IMG/VR virus record: IMGVR_UViG_3300021182_000057
Location: 1 to 31,919 of that record
Length of the DNA: 31,919 nt
From: a virus
Lineage: Duplodnaviria > Caudoviricetes
Direction: 5' to 3' (one strand)
Of the stretch, positions 1-25,041 are shown in pieces (position 1 is the first letter of the stretch; the number at the start of each line of letters is the position of its first letter). The notes under the pieces were generated by a model that was not told where the DNA came from, ran no database searches, and saw only the letters and a program-made list of their open reading frames with translations. The translations under genes were made by a program, and so were the position numbers.

Positions 1-105
1 ATGCGGGAATTCAGGAGGCTTGCACATCGAAAATGCAATATGCGCAGAGGAAACATCCCACTAGGGCCGCTCATCGAAGAGGCGCACGCGAAAGGGAAGC
101 CGTGA
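1..105 (+). CDS. Probable C-terminal fragment of an HNH endonuclease (likely truncated by the window start)
   Basis: Frame 1 reads ...RRLAHRKCNMRRGNIP..., resembling the C-terminal HxxCNxxRG motif of HNH nucleases; TGA overlaps the next GTG start. Confidence 0.45.
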   Translation: MREFRRLAHRKCNMRRGNIPLGPLIEEAHAKGKP

Positions 106-323
106 GCGCAGAACAGAAGCGACACGTCCGGTGGCGCCTTGTAGACGATCCAGGCTCTTACTGGACCTGCTGGGAAATGAATGGCGAGCGGGTGATTATG
201 GACGATCCAAAGCGCCTACGCAAAGGCAAGAAGCCGGTGAACCAAGATGATCGGATACTGAGCATTCTGGCGAGTAGAGAGCGGCATCTAGGCCGGTACC
301 GGCGAGATGCGCGGGGGGAATAA
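102..323 (+). CDS. Hypothetical phage protein
   Basis: GTGA overlap with the upstream ORF; part of ORF 33..323. Confidence 0.5.
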   Translation: MSAEQKRHVRWRLVDDPGSYWTCWEMNGERVIMDDPKRLRKGKKPVNQDDRILSILASRERHLGRYRRDARGE

Positions 324-662
324 TGCCGGTTAGGATGCTGCCACCTGGGCCAGATCCGGCGCGCACAATGGCCCAACTTGACGCCCTGGTGCGCTCAGGG
401 AGATCCGTTAGGCGTCGCCGGCACATCGGCCCGCCCTCGGGGAGACGGAAGGCACCCAGCCTATCCGCCGCCTTTGGAAAAGCCATGCCTGCCGGAGCCT
501 TACCGGCCAGATGCGCTCGAGGCGGAACATGCGGAGTTGGCAGCGCTGCGGGATCTCGACGCCGATATCTGGCGCAGCCGCTGCCGAGAACTGATGCGGC
601 GAGTTGGGGAACTTGAGGCGGAATTAAACAGCGCAGCGGCGCGGAAGGAGGAGGCACGGTGA
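323..662 (+). CDS. Hypothetical protein, possibly frameshifted (N-terminus in the 323 frame, coiled-coil C-terminus in the 378..662 frame)
   Basis: TAATG coupling at 323; the protein-like C-terminus and stop/start coupling at 659-662 are in another frame. Confidence 0.35.
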
Positions 663-865: not shown

Positions 866-1140
866 CGATAGAAGAACAGGCTAAGTTGCGCGATGTGTTG
901 CACATACAGAGCGGAGATAGGATCGTTTCGGCGTGGGCTGAGAACGCACGCGGGCCAGGGTGGCAAAACCAGTTATTTATCGTACTGGTTGAACAACACA
1001 GCGATGGAAAAATGCGAGTTGAATCCGTTCAAGTGAGGGAAGCGACTCCATGCATGATAGCCATCTTCGATATATGCGCAGCGGCGCACAAGTCGCTAAT
1101 GGACAGCATGAAGGCGGCGGAGGTGACAAAGCAATGGTGA
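862..1140 (+). CDS. Hypothetical phage protein (MTIEEQAKL...)
   Basis: ATGA overlap at 862-865; within ORF 682..1140. Confidence 0.6.
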   Translation: MTIEEQAKLRDVLHIQSGDRIVSAWAENARGPGWQNQLFIVLVEQHSDGKMRVESVQVREATPCMIAIFDICAAAHKSLMDSMKAAEVTKQW

Positions 1141-1352
1141 GAGATCCACGCTTAGACCCGCAGCCGGGCGACGTGCTGCGGAAGGGGACAATGGTTAGGA
1201 AGGTAATTCGCATCGATAAAGCCTATTCCGATTCACAAGGTGATGACGTGGCACACACACGGAATGGGGGAAAACGGGAGCGCTACATTTTCGTTTGCAA
1301 CTGGCGCCGCTGGGCAAAGGGAGCCGAGGTGGTGAGCGGAGGCGAGAAATGA
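1134..1352 (+). CDS. Hypothetical phage protein (MVRDPRLDPQPGD...)
   Basis: GGAGG SD upstream; overlaps neighbouring genes. Confidence 0.6.
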   Translation: MVRDPRLDPQPGDVLRKGTMVRKVIRIDKAYSDSQGDDVAHTRNGGKRERYIFVCNWRRWAKGAEVVSGGEK

Positions 1353-1663
1353 GCGACTACAACTCTCCGGCGAATGATACGCTGTGCTTCAGGCTGGCAG
1401 AATCGCGCCGAGAAGTACAGCGCGCCCACAAGGAGAATAAATCTCTCCGCGCTCGTGTCGCGGAGTTGGAGTCGGACGCCAGGCGGTTCGTGTGGTATTT
1501 CTGTTCGTGCAAGAATAGCGATTTCATCACGGCTTGTCTCAATGGAGCGTTAGGCGGATATACTCTCGACCAGTGGCGCGAATTAATCGACAAAGCCATG
1601 TCGTCCGAGCGTCCAGTGCCGGAGGATAAGCCGACAACTCATCTAGAGGAAGGAATGCGATGA
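1349..1663 (+). CDS. Hypothetical phage protein
   Basis: GGAGG SD; ATGA overlaps at both ends. Confidence 0.6.
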   Translation: MSDYNSPANDTLCFRLAESRREVQRAHKENKSLRARVAELESDARRFVWYFCSCKNSDFITACLNGALGGYTLDQWRELIDKAMSSERPVPEDKPTTHLEEGMR

Positions 1664-3045
1664 GCGAAAGCACGAAGATTGAATGGTGTGATGCAAGTTG
1701 GAACCCGATTCGCGGATGCTCGATGGCGAAGGGCAGCGAGACCGGCGGCTGTCTGAACTGCTACGCGGCGCGGATGTGCGCGCGTGGTCTGCCGGGCCTG
1801 AACTCGCCCACCACCGGCGAGCCGTTTGCCGTCATGCGCGATTCCGGCCCGCGCTGGACCGGCAAGGTGGAACTGATCGAGTCCGCGCTGGAGCTGCCGT
1901 TGCACTGGCGCAAGCCGCGCCGGATCTTTGTGAATTCGATGAGCGACTTGTTCCATGAGTCGCTACCCAATGAGGCGATTGACCGCGTGTTCGCGGTGAT
2001 GGCGCTGTGTCCGCAGCACACATTCCAGGTGCTTACGAAGAGGCCGGAGCGTATGGTGGCATATCTCACGGGTGGTCCATGGGGGCACATCGAACAACGT
2101 GCGAGTGAGACTATCGGAACTCGGCGCGAAATTCCAGTCGAGCATCTACCTCTGGCGCACGTCCACTTTGGCATCTCCTGCGAGAACCAAGAGACCGCCG
2201 ACGCGCGCATTCCGCTACTGCTTCAGACTCCGGCCGCGGTGCGGTTCCTGAGCCTGGAGCCTTTACTTTCTCCGGTGGATTTGTCAAAATGGTTATATGA
2301 CAACACAAGATCGCGAGTTCCTGGCACAGATAGCATTGGGCTGGTTCAAGGTTACGACGAGTGGCGAGATCCACCGCATGGTGAAATTCGGGGGCGGGGG
2401 AACGACGCCGAGCCTGCACCGAATTTCGGAAACTCGGGCCGAGCGAAGCTGCTCTCGCGAGGGCGGCTATCTCAGGGTGATGTTTATGGGATCGGCTGGA
2501 AGGATGAAGGTGTCGGCTCACCGAATTGTTTGGATGGTGTCGAACCATTCGGACATCTCGGCTCCGATGGAGATCAACCACAAGAACGGAAACAAGCGGG
2601 ACAACCGCCCAGGGAATCTGGAACTGGTTACCAGGGCAGAGAACGTCATCCATTCTTTCAGGGAACTTCCCCGGAAGAAGAAAGCTCAGCGAGGAGCGGC
2701 CAACCCTATGGCGAAGATGACGCAATCGCAGGTGGACGAGATCCGGGCGCTCTGGAGAGCCAGGGTGATGAGTCAGAGAGAGATCGGGGCTCACTTCGGC
2801 ATAACACAGTCAGCGGTATCGGCGATAGTTCTTCGGAGATCCTGGTAGGCATTCACCAAGTCATAGTCGGCGGCGAGAGCGGCCCTGGAGCGCGCCCGAT
2901 GCATCCCGACTGGGTGCGCTCGATCCGCGACCAGTGCGTTGCGGCTGGCGTGCCGTTCTTCTTCAAGCAGGCTATAATAGGAGGGAAGAAGGTTTCAATG
3001 CCAGAACTAGACGCGAGCCGCCATGCGGAAATTCCAAGGTCTTAG
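1660..3045 (+). CDS. DUF5131 / phage Gp37-Gp68 family protein (radical-SAM-like) with a ~185-aa insertion
   Basis: Motifs TKIEWCDASWNPIRGCS, GCLNCYA, RIFVNSMSDLFH, HTFQVLTKRPER, RFLSLEPLL, VIVGGESGPGARPMHPDWVRSIRDQC, PFFFKQ. Confidence 0.92.
   Translation: MSESTKIEWCDASWNPIRGCSMAKGSETGGCLNCYAARMCARGLPGLNSPTTGEPFAVMRDSGPRWTGKVELIESALELPLHWRKPRRIFVNSMSDLFHESLPNEAIDRVFAVMALCPQHTFQVLTKRPERMVAYLTGGPWGHIEQRASETIGTRREIPVEHLPLAHVHFGISCENQETADARIPLLLQTPAAVRFLSLEPLLSPVDLSKWLYDNTRSRVPGTDSIGLVQGYDEWRDPPHGEIRGRGNDAEPAPNFGNSGRAKLLSRGRLSQGDVYGIGWKDEGVGSPNCLDGVEPFGHLGSDGDQPQERKQAGQPPRESGTGYQGRERHPFFQGTSPEEESSARSGQPYGEDDAIAGGRDPGALESQGDESERDRGSLRHNTVSGIGDSSSEILVGIHQVIVGGESGPGARPMHPDWVRSIRDQCVAAGVPFFFKQAIIGGKKVSMPELDASRHAEIPRS
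2297..2848 (+). CDS. HNH homing endonuclease with C-terminal HTH, nested in the +1 frame inside DUF5131
   Basis: GYLRV...AHRIVW...EINHKNGNKRDNRPGNLELVTRAENVIH (HNH_3 type), then RGAANPMAKMT...SQREIGAHFGITQSAVSAI (HTH). Confidence 0.9.
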   Translation: MTTQDREFLAQIALGWFKVTTSGEIHRMVKFGGGGTTPSLHRISETRAERSCSREGGYLRVMFMGSAGRMKVSAHRIVWMVSNHSDISAPMEINHKNGNKRDNRPGNLELVTRAENVIHSFRELPRKKKAQRGAANPMAKMTQSQVDEIRALWRARVMSQREIGAHFGITQSAVSAIVLRRSW

Positions 3046-3505
3046 CAGGTCTGAACAGTACCGACGGCACAAGAAGGCAAAGGCGCTGGGGGTGGGAGTG
3101 GATGAGGTTCCCGACACGCGCGGTCACCACGAGAACCACGTGAAGGGAAGTCGCACCGCCAGGTGGAATAATGGGCGCATTTTTAGTTCCCACGGATATG
3201 TAAAGATTCGGGTGGGAAAAAGCCACCCGCTGGCGGACCCAAACGGATACGCTTATGAGCATCTGGTGGTATGGGTATCGGCCGGGAATACCCTTCCGAA
3301 AAAAGGCGAACTTCTGCACCACGAAGACGAAGACGGGGCTAATAACCGTATCGAAAACCTGAAGCTCAAATCGAAGTCGAAGCATGGCGCTGACCATATA
3401 TCTCAAAGGGTTCGGGATGATCTAGGCAGACTTACCCCCAAGCGCGCCGCTGGGCGCCTCCTCGATGGCCGCACGTGGGACGAACTGCCGGAGCCAAAGC
3501 AATGA
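3023..3505 (+). CDS. HNH homing endonuclease fused to a DUF5131-like C-terminal tail
   Basis: WNNGR...GYVKIRVGKSHPLADPNGYAYEHLVVW...LHHEDEDGANNRIENL; ends KRAAGRLLDGRTWDELP. Confidence 0.85.
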   Translation: MRKFQGLSRSEQYRRHKKAKALGVGVDEVPDTRGHHENHVKGSRTARWNNGRIFSSHGYVKIRVGKSHPLADPNGYAYEHLVVWVSAGNTLPKKGELLHHEDEDGANNRIENLKLKSKSKHGADHISQRVRDDLGRLTPKRAAGRLLDGRTWDELPEPKQ

Positions 3506-16222: not shown

Positions 16223-16927
16223 CTAAGAGACGATCTCAATCCGCCGGTGATTCTGAAGGTAGAGGATCGCCTTCATGAGAAGGGCGGGGTCGTCGTCGAA
16301 GCCCCCCAGCCCGGTATTGCACTTTTCGCAAAGGAGTGCCCGGTGGGTGCCGGGGAATCGGTGATCGTGGTCGATGGCCAGCCGGGTGTTCTTTGGCCTC
16401 CCGCTTGGCGGTTTTTCGCAGATGGCGCACAGGCCGTTCTGTTCGGCCTCAAGTTCTGCGCGTCTCTCTGGGGCGACGCCATAGAGCTTTTGCTCCATGT
16501 GCTGCCTGCGGGACAGGTGGTTTTTGGGCGTATGGTACCAGTCGAGGGACAGTTTTCGAGTGCATGGCTTGCAGAGGTTCCCGAAGCCGTCCGGGGAAGA
16601 GCAGTGGGCCGGGAATTCATCCACGGCTCGGACCTCTTGGCAGGAGGTGCAGACCTTTTGGCCGGGACCCACCATTCCGATGAGCGCCGGACAGGCCAAG
16701 AGGTGCTTTCTGAAGTGGAGCTTGACGGTCTGGTGGCCGCATCTCCTGCATTCGATCACCTTCCCCTTGGGGGCCGGCTCGGGTGGCTTTGGCAGGTTCT
16801 TCGGGTTGAGCGCGCACTTCTTTCTGTGAGGCCATATTTCTCTGGCGGAATGCTGTTCTCCGCAGTGGGGGCAGGCTCGGTACACGCGACCTTTGAGCCT
16901 GGGTTTGGTTTGTCGGGGTTGTTCCAT
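16223..16927 (-). CDS. Endonuclease VII-family free-standing homing endonuclease with N-terminal zinc fingers
   Basis: QNGLCAICEK...LAIDHDH...RALLCEKCNTGLGGFDDDP..AILYL; N-terminal CPHC, CRRC, CTSC/CKPC. Confidence 0.9.
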   Translation of the reverse strand: MEQPRQTKPRLKGRVYRACPHCGEQHSAREIWPHRKKCALNPKNLPKPPEPAPKGKVIECRRCGHQTVKLHFRKHLLACPALIGMVGPGQKVCTSCQEVRAVDEFPAHCSSPDGFGNLCKPCTRKLSLDWYHTPKNHLSRRQHMEQKLYGVAPERRAELEAEQNGLCAICEKPPSGRPKNTRLAIDHDHRFPGTHRALLCEKCNTGLGGFDDDPALLMKAILYLQNHRRIEIVS

Positions 16928-16982: not shown

Positions 16983-18224
16983 GTGGCACTCCAACTTACG
17001 GAGCTTGACGCCTACGTTTACGATCACATCGTCGATAAGACAACGGATTAAGAATCAGTCCCTTAGCGGAGTAATCCGCTTCGAATAACCCCGTGAATTG
17101 CTGGGAAACCTAAAGCCGACAGGGCCAAGGCAATCAGCAGCGAAGCCCAGAGATGGGAACGTTCAACGGCCATCGCCGGAAGGCGAGTAGGGTCAAGCGA
17201 CCCGAAGCGCGGGGCACCCCTTATGAGGGTGATGATATGGTCTGAGCTGCGGACGAAAGCCGCAGAAGGTCGGGAGTTAGCGATCCCGGTCGTAACACAA
17301 CTGATCATCTACGGTGCAGATCCAGCATTTACGCGCTTGAGTCAGCAGAATGCCGAGCGATTCAGTGGCAACAGCAGAATTCGCAGACCCGTGATCGTGG
17401 GCGAGCTCAACGGCGACTTCATGGGCAAGGGCGAGACCATGAACATCTCGTTCGTGACCACGGACGCGGCGATCACGGTGGACCTGAAGGTAGCGTGGGT
17501 AAATATCACGCTATACGGATGGGACGCGATGAACGACGACGGCCCGGAGGCGATTTTCAATCAGGTGGAGATGAAGTTTCTTAACGCCTCGTTGAAGATG
17601 GCCAAACTGCTCGCCGTCAACATGTACCAGAACGGCCAAGCCTCGACGGGCCGGCAGAAGTACTTGAACGGGTTTGCCGAGTGGTACGACGATGGCACCA
17701 ACTACCCAACGGTCGGCGGCCAGAACCGGACGGATATAAACGGCATCCCGAACGGCACGGTAGGCGGCTTGAACGCCTATCAGGCGACGCTGACGACGTT
17801 CACGTTGGCGCAACTCAATACAGCATACGGCAACGCGTGCTGGGGGTCGGATCACCCGGATATGATCGTCGCGACACAGAACGGCTGGAACTTGATCTGG
17901 CAGGGAACGCAGCCGGCGATGCGGTATGCTAACACCGACAACGACTTGGCTAACGTTGGATTCCAAAATTTCAAGTTCAACGCGGCCGACGTCGTGATTT
18001 CTCGGTACCTGCCGTCCGGGTCCTCGCCGATTGGGCAGATGTACGGATTGAATACCGCCTATATCGAGTGGTGGTTCTCGCAGGTTGACCTGTTCCAGTT
18101 TGGCTTTACGGGGTTCAAGGGCGTGAACAACTCGATCGATGTGAGCGGCCAGTTCATCTGCGGATCGAATTTGATGGTGCCTAGCCCCAGGACCGGGTTC
18201 GCTCTGCACTCAAGTCTTTTCTAA
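16983..18224 (+). CDS. Major capsid protein, two exons (16983-17048 and 17304-18224; 328 aa spliced)
   Basis: AGGAGG SD plus GTG start; exon 1 MALQLTELDAYVYDHIVDKTTD joins in frame to IIYGADPAFTRL; capsid-like segments NGFAEW, DHPDMIVAT, NVGFQNFKFNAA, MYGLNTAYI; follows the scaffold. Confidence 0.88.
17049..17303 (+). ncRNA. Group I self-splicing intron, 255 nt, no ORF
   Basis: 5' exon ends in U with P1 GGAU/GUCC (U17048.G17058 wobble); P3 CCCCGUG(17089)/CGCGGGG(17208); P AAUUGCUGGGAA; Q AAUCAGCAG; R GUUCAACGGCCA; S GAUAUGGUCU; terminal G17303; removal restores the frame. Confidence 0.9.
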
Positions 18225-19891: not shown

Positions 19892-19920
19892 TTGACTCTC
19901 GGCTCGCAAAGGGATAGACT
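19892..19920 (+). promoter_or_regulatory. Sigma70-type promoter, leaderless geometry
   Basis: TTGACT-N17-TAGACT, 7 nt before ATG 19928. Confidence 0.7.
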
Positions 19921-19927
19921 CAAGAGC

Positions 19928-20239
19928 ATGAAAACTCTAATTTTCTCTCTGCTGATTTCCCTTCCTTTACTTGCCGCCGATGCACCGAAGGCGGAAACCA
20001 TCAATATCCCCGATGCGGCCAAGGTTAAAATTCAAGCCGCCAAAATCGACATTCTGGGAATCGAGAGTCAGATGGCGCAACTCCAGGTCAAGTTCGCGGA
20101 CCTTTACCGGCAGCACGGAGAAGCGCAGGCCGCTCTCGATCAGGCCGTATCCGATGCGAAGAAGTCCTTGAATTGCCCCACTTGCACCTTGAGCGACAAG
20201 ATGGATCTAGTGAAGCCATCCGAAACCCCAAAGAAGTAG
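19928..20239 (+). CDS. Secreted/periplasmic coiled-coil protein
   Basis: Signal peptide MKTLIFSLLISLPLLAA, coiled coil, CxxC near the C-terminus. Confidence 0.7.
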   Translation: MKTLIFSLLISLPLLAADAPKAETINIPDAAKVKIQAAKIDILGIESQMAQLQVKFADLYRQHGEAQAALDQAVSDAKKSLNCPTCTLSDKMDLVKPSETPKK

Positions 20240-20268: not shown

Positions 20269-22506
20269 ATGGCGGGGTATCCAGTAATGCGCGTAACATT
20301 CTGCAATACATCGTTGACTTTCGATCCTTGGGATTTCAGAAATCCGGACGATCCCGGAATTGGAGGGTCTGAGACCGCCGTAGTGGAATGCGCTAGGCGA
20401 CTGGCCTTGCGCGGACATGAGGTCACCGTGTATGGCACGCTAAGGGAGGATACTCCTTCTGAGTGGCAGGGAACGCGCTGGCTGCCACTTTCTGAGGCCG
20501 ATTACTCTCTCCCCGGATGGTGGTTTCTTTCCCGATGCCCGGAGACCCTGGACAACTTCTCAGTCGATCATCCCGGCCAAATGATTTGCCTGACCGCGCA
20601 AGATGTCTACTACCCACAATTAACCGATGAGCGATGGGAGAAGTTGGACCGCTTTATCGCTCTCTGCCCAACGCATGTGAGATTCACTAAAGATAAATAC
20701 CCCAAGTACGCTCACAAAGTGTTTGGCGGATTCAATGGGATCAGGAACGACGTAATCCGGGAGATTGAGTCCGTCAACCCGCCGGTCAGAAACCCACGGA
20801 AGATAATCTTCGCGTCTTCACCGGATCGTGGGCTTTTACCGCTTCTGAAAATATTCAGGCGAGCGCGTCAGAGGGTCCATGATCTTGAATTGGTAGTGGC
20901 CTATGGGTTCGACAACATCGAGAAGATCATCGCGTCGAACCCGCCGACGAACCACTGGAGAACCATCTACGATGAGGCTATGCGTGAGATGCGTCAGCCG
21001 GGGGTCACGTGGATGGGGAGGATCGGACAGAGGCAGTTGATTCGCGAGAAACTGTCCTGCGGGATGAGTGTTCACCCGACGATGTTCATGGAGACGGGAT
21101 TTATCTCAGGGATAGAGGAAATGGCCTGCGGAGCGATCCCGATCCTCAGTCCGACGTGGGCGGCGGGGGATTACTGCAAACACGGGGTATGGATTTTTGG
21201 CGATCCCGACGACGCACTCACCCAAGCTCGGTACGTCGGGGAAATCTTCAGGCTCGCGAGGCAGCCTGAACTTCAGGAACATATTCGCGCGGAAATGATG
21301 CCGCGAGCGAGAAATGCATTCAATTGGGAGCGCTATGTGGATCTGGTGGAATCCTGGATGTACGGGTTGGAGGGCCACCGCAATAGTTTCTTTCAGTTCA
21401 ACTTTGCGCTGAAGCACGCCAAGGGGGCGGGTAGAATCCTTAACGTAGGGTGCTGCGACGATGCGGGTGAGATGAGCAAGATCGGGGCCGTTAATGTTGA
21501 CAAGTTCGAGTTTGACGATCACCTGAAGACGCGGAACGCGGCGGACATTATCTCGGATGCGCGAGATCTTCCCCGACCGTTCCAGTCGCACTCATTCGAT
21601 ATGGTCTGTTCCACGGACATGCTGGAGCATTTTCCAACCGACGAGGTTCCGGAGCAATTGGAGAAATTTAAGGCGTGCTTGAAGCCGGGTGGTCGGATTC
21701 TCTTCACGGTCCCGAACGACACGCGGAATCCCAACCCAGACGACACCAATGTTCGTGGGTACGGAGGGCATCATCATTGCCCTCCGGAGGTGATTGATCG
21801 CTGGTTACGCGATGCTCGATTGAGGGCTGTAGTGCGACAGCCTATCGAATATGGATTCGATGATATATGCGGGGAGGGTGTCGTGGCGGTGGATGACTCC
21901 CCTAAGCACTCTGTGGTGTTCCTTACTTACGACCCCGATGGCAAGATGAAAGAGATGGTTGAGCGGAGCCTGTCTTTGATACGGCAGCATGCGCCGGGGG
22001 TAGAAATCATCATAGCGGACGATAAGGGAAAGTGCGCTGCGATCAATAACGGATTCGCAAAGACTAAAGGGGAGTACATCCATGTAGTTTGCAACGACAT
22101 GATGATTCATGACCCGGACTGGCTGGAAACGATGGCTGTTCCGAATACGCTGACTGGATGGGCGCCCAGGACGTTCGTGCTGACGGGACAGATTCTTCCC
22201 GAGATGTCTTTGTTTTGTGTCCCGAGGAATATCTACGAGGCCATCGGAAGAGTAGTATGGGATACTGCGTACGAGGATGGGTATGGTTTTGACGATGAGT
22301 CCTTGATCGCCCGCGTCAAATTAGCTGGGTTCAACGTAGAGATTCGGCCGGTGAAGGGGGATCACTTGTGTCTCCAGACCCACAAGAACTATTTCACGTC
22401 GGAAAAGTTCGGTCAAATGTATGATCGAAATATGGAGGTGTTCAAGAGGGAGTTCGACCACATAAAGCCTGTCGGCGGATGGCTCAACTATAAGAGGCCG
22501 GCATGA
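20269..22506 (+). CDS. Tri-domain protein: GT4-like glycosyltransferase + class I SAM methyltransferase + GT2-like domain
   Basis: GIGGSET, IIFASSPDRGL, ETGFISGIEEMACG; ILNVGC...DMLEH...LKPGG; CAAINNG...VCNDM...YGFDD. Confidence 0.88.
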   Translation: MAGYPVMRVTFCNTSLTFDPWDFRNPDDPGIGGSETAVVECARRLALRGHEVTVYGTLREDTPSEWQGTRWLPLSEADYSLPGWWFLSRCPETLDNFSVDHPGQMICLTAQDVYYPQLTDERWEKLDRFIALCPTHVRFTKDKYPKYAHKVFGGFNGIRNDVIREIESVNPPVRNPRKIIFASSPDRGLLPLLKIFRRARQRVHDLELVVAYGFDNIEKIIASNPPTNHWRTIYDEAMREMRQPGVTWMGRIGQRQLIREKLSCGMSVHPTMFMETGFISGIEEMACGAIPILSPTWAAGDYCKHGVWIFGDPDDALTQARYVGEIFRLARQPELQEHIRAEMMPRARNAFNWERYVDLVESWMYGLEGHRNSFFQFNFALKHAKGAGRILNVGCCDDAGEMSKIGAVNVDKFEFDDHLKTRNAADIISDARDLPRPFQSHSFDMVCSTDMLEHFPTDEVPEQLEKFKACLKPGGRILFTVPNDTRNPNPDDTNVRGYGGHHHCPPEVIDRWLRDARLRAVVRQPIEYGFDDICGEGVVAVDDSPKHSVVFLTYDPDGKMKEMVERSLSLIRQHAPGVEIIIADDKGKCAAINNGFAKTKGEYIHVVCNDMMIHDPDWLETMAVPNTLTGWAPRTFVLTGQILPEMSLFCVPRNIYEAIGRVVWDTAYEDGYGFDDESLIARVKLAGFNVEIRPVKGDHLCLQTHKNYFTSEKFGQMYDRNMEVFKREFDHIKPVGGWLNYKRPA

Positions 22507-23672
22507 GAACGGCCACATTGGTAGTCACTACCATCAACGACCCGCTGGTATTGGAGTCGTACGGGAAAAACTTTGACGATTACGGACATCTGGAACAGGT
22601 GCGGGTAATCGTCATCCCGGACAGGAAAACACCTCCGGCGGCTTTTTCCACGTGCGGTAGGTTGCGGGACGCCGGATTGAAAGTATTGTGTCCAACGTTG
22701 GACGACCAAGATAGATTCCTGAACCGTCTTGGCCTCACTCCCGACTTCATCCCATACAACTCAGACAACCGACGTAACGTTGGGTACTTGATGGCGCTGG
22801 AAGACCATTCAGATTTCCTGATTTCAATCGACGACGATAACTGGTGCCGGGGAGATTCGGACTATTTCGGGGAACACGAATATGGATTATTTGGGACAGT
22901 AAAGTCGGAGGTGTCATCGGGGCCGGCAAGATTCCTCAATCCGATCCATCCGATGGGATGGTATGGGACTTCCTGTCCGGTGTATGCTCGCGGGTTCCCA
23001 TACTTCGCTCGATTTGTAGATGGCGAGTCGCAGGTGTCGGCCGTAAGTCCAAACGCACCTATAGATGTGGCTATTAGTGCCGGGCTATGGCTTCGAGATC
23101 CCGACGTAGATGCAATGACATGGCTGTCGGCTAAGCCCCGGTTAGATTCAGTGGTGTCGCAGATTGAGGTTAATGCAATTGACGGCGGCAGGGTTGTTTT
23201 GGGCGATACAATGTGGGCTCCCGTAAACTCCCAAAACACCGCCATCGCCAGGAAGTTGATCCCGTCATATTACTTCCTTCGTATGGGATACCCTATAAAA
23301 GGAACCAGGGTAGGTCGCATGGGGGATATATTCTCTGGATATTTCGCCTTGGCTTGCGCTAAAGCTGTCGGATGTTCGGCCTGTTTCGGGAAGCCTCTTG
23401 TGGACCATCGCAGGAACAGCCACGACTACCTCAATGACCTATCTTCCGAACTCCCAGCGATTATGATGCTGGATAATATCCTGCCGTGGCTGATCGATCT
23501 GAAGCTAGATTCTAGCGATGTGGGGAGCGCCTATCTATCCCTTTCGGATTCGCTGGATTCTCAGGCTGAGCGATTTTCCGGTAGCGTGTGGGACGACGCG
23601 ACTCGCGGGTTCATTCATCAAATGGCCTACCTGATGAGGGTTTGGCTGGATGCCGTTAGGAGGATCGGGTGA
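22503..23672 (+). CDS. STELLO / reversibly glycosylated polypeptide (GT75)-like glycosyltransferase or NDP-sugar mutase
   Basis: VVTTIN, PDRKTP, RRNVGYL, IDDDN, GLWLRDPDVDA, PVNSQNT, RMGDIFSGY, HRRNSHDYLNDL. Confidence 0.8.
   Translation: MRTATLVVTTINDPLVLESYGKNFDDYGHLEQVRVIVIPDRKTPPAAFSTCGRLRDAGLKVLCPTLDDQDRFLNRLGLTPDFIPYNSDNRRNVGYLMALEDHSDFLISIDDDNWCRGDSDYFGEHEYGLFGTVKSEVSSGPARFLNPIHPMGWYGTSCPVYARGFPYFARFVDGESQVSAVSPNAPIDVAISAGLWLRDPDVDAMTWLSAKPRLDSVVSQIEVNAIDGGRVVLGDTMWAPVNSQNTAIARKLIPSYYFLRMGYPIKGTRVGRMGDIFSGYFALACAKAVGCSACFGKPLVDHRRNSHDYLNDLSSELPAIMMLDNILPWLIDLKLDSSDVGSAYLSLSDSLDSQAERFSGSVWDDATRGFIHQMAYLMRVWLDAVRRIG
22689..22704. promoter_or_regulatory. 16-bp palindromic site, copy 6 (intragenic)
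   Basis: TGTCCAACGTTGGACG with a perfect 14-bp palindromic core. Confidence 0.7.
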
Positions 23673-24328
23673 TCTCGGTTCTCAGCCCAACTATTCGAGG
23701 GCTGCAAGCCCTGCGTCCAATTGAGCAGTCGCTGAATGCCCAATCGTTCACTGATTGGGAATGGCTGGTCGAGTTCGGAAACGGCCGAGAGCACTCCCTG
23801 AATAGGGACTTCAACTCCATGCTTCGCCGCGCTCGCGGGGAACTGGTAGTGTTCGCCGAGGATTGGGTCTGGTTCCCTCTCGATGGCTTAGAGAGATTCT
23901 GGGATGCATATCGGGCCATGCCGCAGTGCTTCTTTACGGCTCCGGTTCCCAAGTCCCCGGCGTTCTGGGAGATGGATGGGAATCTGTTCTACAAGCATCC
24001 GCTTGAGTTGGAGTGGAGATCAGAAAATCCCGGATGGGTTCACTGGATGAATTGGGAGGCTGATTGGGCGGCGGCCCCTCTGGGGGTACTGAAGTCTATT
24101 GGTGGATTTGACGAGCGCATGGACCAGAAATGGTCGAACGACAATCAGAACGTATCGTTTCGGGCCTTCAGGGCCGGCTGTAAGTTTTGGAACGTCATTG
24201 ATAATCCGGCCGTCGCGCTTAGTCATGACAAGTACTGGAAGCATCCATTCCGCCACCTACACGATGCGGAGTGGAGCGAGCGTCAGATCAAGAGGTTTGA
24301 GAACGAGCAGTTGCCACCGCTGACATAA
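23669..24328 (+). CDS. GT2-like glycosyltransferase
   Basis: ISVLSPT, QSFTDWEW, ARGELVVFAED, IGGFDERM. Confidence 0.8.
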   Translation: MISVLSPTIRGLQALRPIEQSLNAQSFTDWEWLVEFGNGREHSLNRDFNSMLRRARGELVVFAEDWVWFPLDGLERFWDAYRAMPQCFFTAPVPKSPAFWEMDGNLFYKHPLELEWRSENPGWVHWMNWEADWAAAPLGVLKSIGGFDERMDQKWSNDNQNVSFRAFRAGCKFWNVIDNPAVALSHDKYWKHPFRHLHDAEWSERQIKRFENEQLPPLT

Positions 24329-24339
24329 ACGGAGAATCG

Positions 24340-25041
24340 ATGTTAATTCAGAAAAATCTAATTGGGACTATCGGCGTGATGGGGGCGGTTCCTTCGGTCC
24401 CTTGGGAGTTCTGTTGGTCTCTGGCCCAGATGATTCAATATAACTCCGAGTTTATGTGCGGTCCGGGAGAATATATCCACCTGATGTGCCCGAGCACATC
24501 GTACCATTCCACAGCCAGGAACCAGCTCGCCGCAGGGTTCATGGGGGAATGGCTGTTTATGATGGACACCGACCACGCCTTCGACCCCGACATATTACTC
24601 CGCATGCTAATGCTGGTTAAACTCCATAACGTCGATGTCCTATCAGCCCTGTATCGGTACAAGGTATACCCTTATCTTCCGGTGGCCTTCCACTGGAACG
24701 AAGAAACGCAGGGGTTTGTTGGCATCGCGGAACTGGATTGGAACGCCATGATCCAAGAGGTGTCGTGCGTGGGAGCGGGGTGCCTCCTAGTAAGACGCGG
24801 GGCATTCGACCGGATCAGGGAGGAACTTCACGAGCAGCCGTTCGACATTATCCATCCATGGTCGGAGGATTTTTCTTTTTTTGTGCGCCTGCGGAAGTTG
24901 GGGATTAAGTCTTGTATATCACCTCTGATCGAAAGCTACCACTTGAACACTCATCGCGTTACGAGTTCGGATTACGATAGAAGCGCGGTCCAGACATACC
25001 CAATCCCATCCGGTGGCGAGATGGTGGTAGGGAAGGCGTAA
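24340..25041 (+). CDS. GT2-like (GT-A fold) glycosyltransferase
   Basis: ARNQL, WLFMMDTD, VGAGCLLVRR, SEDFSFF. Confidence 0.82.
   Translation: MLIQKNLIGTIGVMGAVPSVPWEFCWSLAQMIQYNSEFMCGPGEYIHLMCPSTSYHSTARNQLAAGFMGEWLFMMDTDHAFDPDILLRMLMLVKLHNVDVLSALYRYKVYPYLPVAFHWNEETQGFVGIAELDWNAMIQEVSCVGAGCLLVRRGAFDRIREELHEQPFDIIHPWSEDFSFFVRLRKLGIKSCISPLIESYHLNTHRVTSSDYDRSAVQTYPIPSGGEMVVGKA

Follow-up and report, generated by a model that had tools for sequence, protein, structure and literature searches.

In the virus record IMGVR_UViG_3300021182_000057 (Caudoviricetes; IMG/VR), a variable loop of a DUF5131 gene contains an intact HNH endonuclease gene in its +1 frame. The nested gene is likely a homing element that works without splicing, and its host protein is likely made at full length with a predicted disordered loop of 185 residues. 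The whole analysed stretch of 31,919 nucleotides, further referred to as the window, is a phage fragment with terminase, major head, RecT-like and ParB-like genes (PHROGs). Comparison of the nested gene with its relatives shows that the insertion site is fixed and the nuclease under purifying selection, that stop codons are excluded from the host frame, that the distribution is patchy, and that a promoter-like site and start signals are specific to invaded alleles. A splicing-free strategy, in which the invader is tolerated as dual-coding DNA and carries its own promoter, was proposed in the original prediction made from the letters of the window and is supported by all of the computational tests suggested there; its mechanism we infer, and the strategy was already described (PMC11855218).

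Nested nuclease gene and the host reading frame

The start of the HNH gene lies 637 nt from the host start, which places it in the +1 frame, and its complete open reading frame (ORF) is contained in the DUF5131 ORF (Table 1) between the motifs EPLL, which begins at 2257, and GGESG, which begins 20 nt past the HNH stop. This layout was recognised correctly in the original prediction, and both families are confirmed by Pfam, the nested product matching HNH_3 with an E-value of 9.4e-13. According to the predicted structure (mean predicted local distance difference test, pLDDT, 91.9) the nuclease is composed of an N-terminal helix and beta sheet, an HNH core, and a C-terminal three-helix domain, which resembles helix-turn-helix (HTH) domains with an E-value that is not significant. 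The homing endonuclease I-HmuI (1u3e) is the only match in PDB at E below 0.001 both for this model (Foldseek, E 1.6e-4) and for the profile of the nested family (E 2.9e-7). None of the residues H95, N107, N116, and H119 varies among the 24 nested copies compared, and the window nuclease contains one Cys only. The ratio of nonsynonymous to synonymous substitution rates (dN/dS) is 0.05–0.10 in five of the six closest nuclease pairs, the sixth pair being saturated, which indicates that the nuclease is under purifying selection. An antisense ORF of 227 amino acids (2111-2794, minus strand) also spans the nested region; it has no Pfam match, and codon use determines that its frame is open, with no sign of selection.

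In the host-protein search, where the 120 best matches besides the query were considered, nine proteins of 468–522 residues have a loop of 199–204 residues between EPLL and GGES, and the loop takes 16–73 residues in the other measurable proteins (the pattern could be measured in 50 of 121). The nuclease search gave 34 proteins, 31 of which were aligned with the query, and this alignment was used for fetching loci from three collections, covering 48 of the 64 parts of the metagenome collection and keeping 80 of 146 viral loci; the loci were picked by nuclease similarity and not for an open host frame. A close family member (38–58% identity, or the window's own copy) is carried by 31 of the 109 loci examined, and in every case it occupies the same DUF5131 loop and is read in the +1 frame; the host frame has no stops there, and the third frame has 5–23. 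Six of these loci are identical duplicates, leaving 25 distinct ones, of which L029 and L030 are nearly the same and L124 lies in a Candidatus Binatia genome record. No close copy was found in 50,697 cultured phage records, the 15 best-ranked of the 331 matching records being 30–32% identical. Thus, homologue alignment and a survey of off-frame HNH ORFs, both suggested in the original prediction, place the insertion in one naturally variable loop in 25 of 25 distinct loci, none of which has the host-frame stops that would have spoken against dual coding. The 5' end is complete in 20 hosts, and in all of them but L021 the host frame runs without a break from a Cys motif to the insert; the motif was recognised by pattern in 17 of these 19 and by reading, in variant form, in two.

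The host frame of the window is open across the 552 nt of the HNH gene, where 5.83 stops are expected from synonymous codon shuffles, and 0.2% of 2000 shuffles were free of stops (P=0.002, window alone); the third frame contains 10 stops against 9.5 expected. A host-frame stop needs an HNH codon ending in T before a codon starting with AA, AG, or GA. In the 25 loci none of 821 such at-risk codon junctions has the T, compared with 676 of 2376 other junctions, and there are no host-frame stops versus 155.6 expected, while 32 control HNH genes outside DUF5131 contain 335 versus 374 expected; because the loci are kin, P values were not multiplied across them. The anticipated stop-codon depletion is seen in the homologues, greatly exceeds chance, and is specific for the host frame. 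Four-fold degenerate sites are near saturation (median pairwise identity 0.33 in 276 pairs from 24 loci; 0.26–0.50 in every block along the whole HNH gene), so the stop-free pattern is maintained and not merely inherited. The counts indicate that selection excludes host-frame stops; a chance open frame is ruled out by the window and family figures, and inertia from one stop-free ancestor as the sole cause is ruled out by the near-saturated sites.

Other biases of the host frame were also considered. Host-frame Trp is halved (28 versus 58.8 expected; ratios of 1.04 and 1.08 in the control sets), as would be expected if the loop is translated or if near-stop codons are avoided, and host-frame Tyr is also low, partly so in the controls. 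Leu TTR and Ser TCN codons are not avoided. Selection for overall hydrophilicity has a small effect only (grand average of hydropathy, GRAVY, -0.445 versus -0.398) in a test that omitted the at-risk junctions and hence left E, K, and Q unscored.

Table 1. Features of the nested element, its host gene, and the adjoining HNH gene in the window
Feature	Position	Strand	Description
Host gene DUF5131 (Gp37/Gp68)	1660..3045	+	461 aa, uninterrupted ORF, predicted radical-SAM-type partial barrel
Last host-like bases, Glu-Pro codons of EPLL	2257..2261	+	next base is the putative 5' edge of the element
Promoter-like site	2262..2296	+	TTTACT, 17-nt spacer with TG extension, CAAAAT, 6 nt to ATG
Nested HNH endonuclease gene	2297..2848	+	183 aa, ATG start, wholly within 1660-3045, +1 frame
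Same DNA in host frame	2296..2850	+	185-aa hydrophilic loop, residues 213-397, predicted disordered
C-terminal host segment IHQVIVGGESG...FFFKQ	2849..2975	+	conserved; predicted to complete the barrel after the loop
Second, different HNH gene	3023..3505	+	overlaps the 3' end of DUF5131; HNH_3, E 1.4e-7

Host protein, element edge, and promoter-like site

The host matches DUF5131 (PF07505) in two stretches with E 3.6e-74 (249.8 bits against a cut-off of 28.9), and its Cys motif C20-x10-C31-x2-C34 is intact. In the AlphaFold model based on 118 homologues the core has pLDDT mostly above 85, and the best VIA-align match is spore photoproduct lyase 4fhc (Z 12.0, root-mean-square deviation 3.4, 205 residues aligned over the model range 1..437), followed by many radical S-adenosylmethionine (SAM) enzymes; Foldseek also puts spore photoproduct lyase on top, with an E-value of only 9e-3. 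The predicted fold is alike, whereas sequence identity is 9% and the x10-x2 spacing of the host Cys motif differs from the x3-x2 spacing usual for radical SAM enzymes. Both marks of this superfamily, a partial barrel fold (predicted) and a three-Cys cluster motif, are thereby found in the host. The model has a strand at residues 400–404, and G404, E406, S407, G408, W418, K436, and Q437 are invariant across the 118 homologues; both halves of the host are predicted to fold into one radical-SAM-like barrel around the loop. DUF5131 is counted among the radical SAM subgroups in PMC9477430.

The loop was expected to be hydrophilic and disordered, and both properties were found: its GRAVY is -1.15 compared with -0.18 for the remaining host protein, and residues 223–388 have pLDDT below 50 and no secondary structure in the model. 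The host-frame dN/dS of the loop is 1.4–3.3 in the 14 closest pairs, its median identity is 23%, and in the near-identical alleles P0003 and P0004/P0156 respectively 128 and 169 insert codons are deleted in frame, so that a function of the loop sequence itself is ruled out by these three observations. The loops of empty alleles vary widely, and one of them (L221) has about 110 residues without any HNH gene. In two proteins, P0025 and P0057, the loop is short and starts like the element; these loops may represent older remnants.

A putative 5' edge was located by comparing 22 invaded alleles with 89 empty ones (those fitting the pattern among 92 fetched). Base composition is alike in both groups up to the Glu-Pro codons and diverges at 2262, and at the third position of the Pro codon 68% of the invaded alleles have T and 76% of the empty ones have G. 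Directly after this edge the promoter-like site is written in the host codons L-L-S-P-V-D-L-S-K-W, with TG two bases before the -10 hexamer and no Shine-Dalgarno sequence in the window. The site was scored by its -35 and -10 hexamers and TG extension against a sigma-70-type consensus. A score of at least 8 in the register of the window is reached by 11 of 22 invaded and none of 89 empty alleles, and when nearby positions are allowed as well, the counts rise to 21 of 22 and 14 of 89; the mean score is 6.8 in invaded versus 2.8 in empty alleles (P=3e-9), and the site is retained in GC-rich invaded loci. In this way the TTTACT-N17-CAAAAT-N6-ATG arrangement of the original prediction is present at 2262-2299, and a promoter-like site specific to the element is conserved in invaded and absent from empty alleles. 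The suggestion that its geometry is shared with other leaderless promoters of the window is weak: such a window-wide class is near the chance level, with 6 plus-strand sites versus 5.3 expected (3 versus 1.3 at a higher score).

The window and three other loci (L022, L023, and L124) have 6 nt from the -10 hexamer to the ATG and no Shine-Dalgarno sequence, which is present in 17 of the 18 other invaded loci, the exception being L053, whose start is likely mis-picked. In 16 of 22 invaded alleles a stop in the HNH frame lies between the Glu-Pro codons and the nuclease start, which makes a +1 frameshift fusion unlikely as the family-wide route to the nuclease. Together with these blocking stops, the pattern of promoter-like sites and Shine-Dalgarno sequences suggests that the nuclease likely has its own transcript and start, which would be leaderless in the window.

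Mobility, proposed mechanism, and rival explanations

To examine the distribution of the element, a quick LG+G4 tree was built from the host core after omission of the insert; it included 78 rows (26 invaded; 52 empty, namely, 23 hand-picked proteins, 22 random loci, and 7 chosen loci) and excluded truncated and duplicate loci. The invaded state needs 15 changes, 11 of them forced by well-supported branches, although change counts cannot separate gain from loss, and a single clade of invaded alleles is rejected (log-likelihood difference 542, p-AU 5.9e-5), in agreement with a patchy distribution. The nearest tree row to the window host is an empty allele, P0005, which is 91% identical. The deletion alleles retain the EPLLSPVDLSKW mark of the element, whereas P0005 has the ordinary EPLLGPIDL junction and for this reason is not loss-like, and the distant hosts L022, L023, and L124 share the promoter DNA of the window. 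Homing is the simplest reading of this distribution.

The proposed cycle includes co-infection, during which the nuclease would nick or cut empty DUF5131 alleles near the EPLLGP codons and repair would copy the element across. The 5' end of the element would swap the host codons after Glu-Pro, so that a near-normal L-L-x-x-x-D-L peptide is kept and a promoter is spelled; the Gly-to-Ser change and the accompanying DNA switch suggest that the same recoding probably also destroys the target site. The nuclease would be translated separately from its own mRNA, leaderless in the window and via a Shine-Dalgarno sequence in most other copies, while ribosomes on the phage operon mRNA would read through the insert in the host frame. 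The latter would be cheap for the nuclease gene, which only has to be free of codons ending in T before those starting with AA, AG, or GA, since a synonymous change can always avoid a host-frame stop. Finally, the two radical-SAM barrel halves would fold together around the loop.

Several points weigh against this account. Half of the invaded alleles score below 8 in the promoter register of the window, and the HNH frame of the window is open for 45 nt upstream of the ATG, so frameshift entry is possible locally. The deletion alleles are known as proteins only, and a search that finds full-length proteins misses out-of-frame deletions. The quick host tree was accompanied by long-branch warnings. 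The doubly invaded host L021 has a TGA near 1212, in its N-terminal part, which means that one or more carriers are broken or contain a sequencing error. Every step of the mechanism, including the absence of splicing, full-length DUF5131, promoter activity, and cleavage, is something we infer from sequence comparison.

The insert could be removed or skipped by an unrecognised process, for example, through a new kind of self-splicing RNA, an atypical intein, or bypassing by the ribosome like that of T4 gene 60. A group I intron is indeed present in another part of the window (RF00028, 66.2 bits, 17039-17265, plus strand), close to where the major head protein gene begins, and inteins with out-of-frame endonucleases are reported (bioRxiv 2025.01.02.630785). 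The same Rfam scan that found this intron gave no intron at gathering score in the insert of the window and 13 other loci, and a relaxed scan of 2150-3000 returned only two chance snoRNA matches (E 2.3–2.8) and no intron at E up to 10. Outside the HNH ORF there are only about 40 nt upstream and 2–26 nt downstream, which leaves little room for a ribozyme; no conserved synonymous block was found along the HNH gene, and the consensus fold of the 5' end of four close copies showed no compensatory change or covariation, which is a weak test. Group I and II introns were accordingly rejected for want of a ribozyme core match and of space, and an intein for want of a Hint-type Pfam match in the loop and of a conserved Asn followed by Cys, Ser, or Thr at its end, the loop being predicted to be unfolded; in both respects the original prediction was right to see neither a group I core nor intein residues. 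As removal or bypass at the RNA level makes a stop-free frame unnecessary, removal of the segment can be given hardly any credence, and the segment is probably not spliced.

If the segment is translated, the host frame might be open just to keep ribosomes moving (polarity, downstream coupling), with the looped DUF5131 protein inactive or dispensable. Stop exclusion alone is silent on why read-through matters, and this explanation would suit the tight packing of the window genes on one strand, the carrier with a broken host, and the unconserved amino acids of a loop with host-frame dN/dS above 1; it is nevertheless regarded as improbable, as the Cys motif and the GGESG...KQ segment are retained across hosts just ~40–50% identical, host-frame Trp is depleted, the barrel is predicted to be intact, and the same site takes loops of 16–73 and in one case about 110 residues in empty alleles. 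The nuclease could also be no longer mobile, being derived from one old overprinting or insertion that was inherited vertically and often lost, or serving the phage, for example, by excluding competitors. Strong purifying selection suits a useful gene as well as a homing gene, and the deletion alleles show that loss occurs, to which the change counts are blind; against this stand the ordinary junction of P0005 beside the element mark kept by the deletion alleles, the promoter DNA shared with far-off hosts, the rejection of one clade, and a fold that is that of the homing endonuclease I-HmuI, so that an immobile gene is very unlikely.

Known systems and further HNH insertions

The closest described systems are the ShiLan domain and the Pacc40 gp60 insertion, in which out-of-frame HNH genes are hidden in mycobacteriophage DNA methylases (Arsenault, Gosselin, and Gogarten 2025; PMC11855218); splicing-free homing was proposed there from about ten related mycobacteriophage copies without a selection test, and another methylase case is reported in PMC12613952. 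These systems share with the DUF5131 element an insertion of about 200 codons with a stop-free host frame and a complete HNH ORF in another frame, the lack of intron and intein features, a disjunct distribution, and a predicted loop away from the enzyme; leaderless initiation is proposed for both. The present element agrees with this type in its stop-free insertion (25 of 25), in an HNH ORF (2297-2848) that fills most of ~2262-2850, and in its disjunct distribution, and it differs from the ShiLan domain proper in host (radical-SAM-like DUF5131 instead of DNA methylase), frame (+1 instead of the 'third frame'), and nuclease, which is I-HmuI-like with a single Cys and an HTH-like C-terminus and is not flanked by zinc fingers. 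Judged by these features, the element works like a ShiLan-type element and is not a ShiLan domain.

A conserved promoter-like site in host codons and Shine-Dalgarno sequences in most copies also distinguish the DUF5131 element from the ShiLan account, at least in the main text of PMC11855218, where the words promoter, selection, synonymous, and radical do not occur. The DUF5131 copies are deeply diverged (median 46% identity), which makes selection testable. Compared with that text the new points are the host family, the frame, the nuclease type, the built-in promoter, and the statistical demonstration of selection. No published DUF5131 case was found in the literature searched, most subscription journals being outside its reach.

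The resemblance to I-HmuI concerns sequence and fold of the HNH core alone (profile positions 47–123); I-HmuI rides in a group I intron, and no intron is detectable around the DUF5131-nested gene. Non-canonical inteins (bioRxiv 10.1101/2025.01.02.630785) likewise have an endonuclease ORF in another frame, or antisense, within a stop-free translated segment, but they retain a protein-splicing domain, none of which is seen here. Endonuclease-related insertions tolerated without splicing are also represented by mobE in Aeh1 nrdA (PMC3045599) and by the T4 gene 60 bypass (10.1101/2022.08.31.505936); there the host gene is reportedly split or the gap skipped, whereas the DUF5131 frame runs on uninterrupted from one end of the nuclease gene to the other.

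The second HNH gene of the window (Table 1) is nearer to these gene-end and split-gene cases. Residues 139–158 of its product match the usual C-terminal tail of DUF5131 (75% identity, E 1.1e-5), and because its last 20 residues are this tail, the gene likely entered the end of the DUF5131 gene and supplied a substitute end. Thirteen of 16 other loci of its family have DUF5131 directly upstream, and 10 of 16 end in a similar tail by reading, the search patterns having included the tail; it appears to be a separate family that uses gene-end replacement. In addition, L021 contains a second, different HNH gene (1519-1989, plus strand) in the +1 frame of another loop of its DUF5131 host (1035-3002), with no host stops versus 6.0 expected, and in L067 an HNH gene (2339-2851) lies in the +1 frame of a 675-residue DNA methyltransferase (1192-3219), with none versus 9.1 expected; L068 and L070 are similar.

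Some other features of the window were observed. Directly upstream of the intron-bearing head gene lies an endonuclease VII-like gene (16223-16927, minus strand; 234 amino acids), preceded by TTGACA-17-TACACT-6-ATG, a near-perfect site belonging to an antisense gene; the opposite strand has an open frame of 265 amino acids with no family match, for which the shuffle test is uninformative. The sequence TTGACT-17-TAGACT-7-ATG at 19892-19930 (plus strand) stands before an ORF of 103 amino acids of no known family, whose true start may be 19928 and not 19733. Methyltransferase/glycosyltransferase, RGP-like, and GT2 genes are clustered at 20269-25041 (plus strand), possibly for virion or DNA glycosylation.

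In summary, the old and diverged DUF5131 family shows a host frame that is actively kept open, and DUF5131, a common radical-SAM-like phage protein, is likely under selection to be made whole. The chances are about even that homing endonucleases have, beside introns and inteins, a third general lifestyle, namely, dual coding in a permissive loop, in which one edit of 35 bases, turning conserved host codons of the target into a promoter, would give both expression and self-immunity while the host peptide is spared. On this account it would have arisen several times (two HNH families in two DUF5131 loops, both in L021, and the cytosine methyltransferase of L067), DUF5131 would be a hotspot where no fewer than three HNH families insert without splicing, and annotation would overlook genes of this kind, as they are masked by the longer host ORF. 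The promoter-like site, the empty target allele, and the natural deletion alleles make homing, read-through, and loop tolerance directly testable. The element thus offers a clean natural case for the origin of fully nested genes and a warning that long low-complexity loops of phage proteins may hide nucleases.

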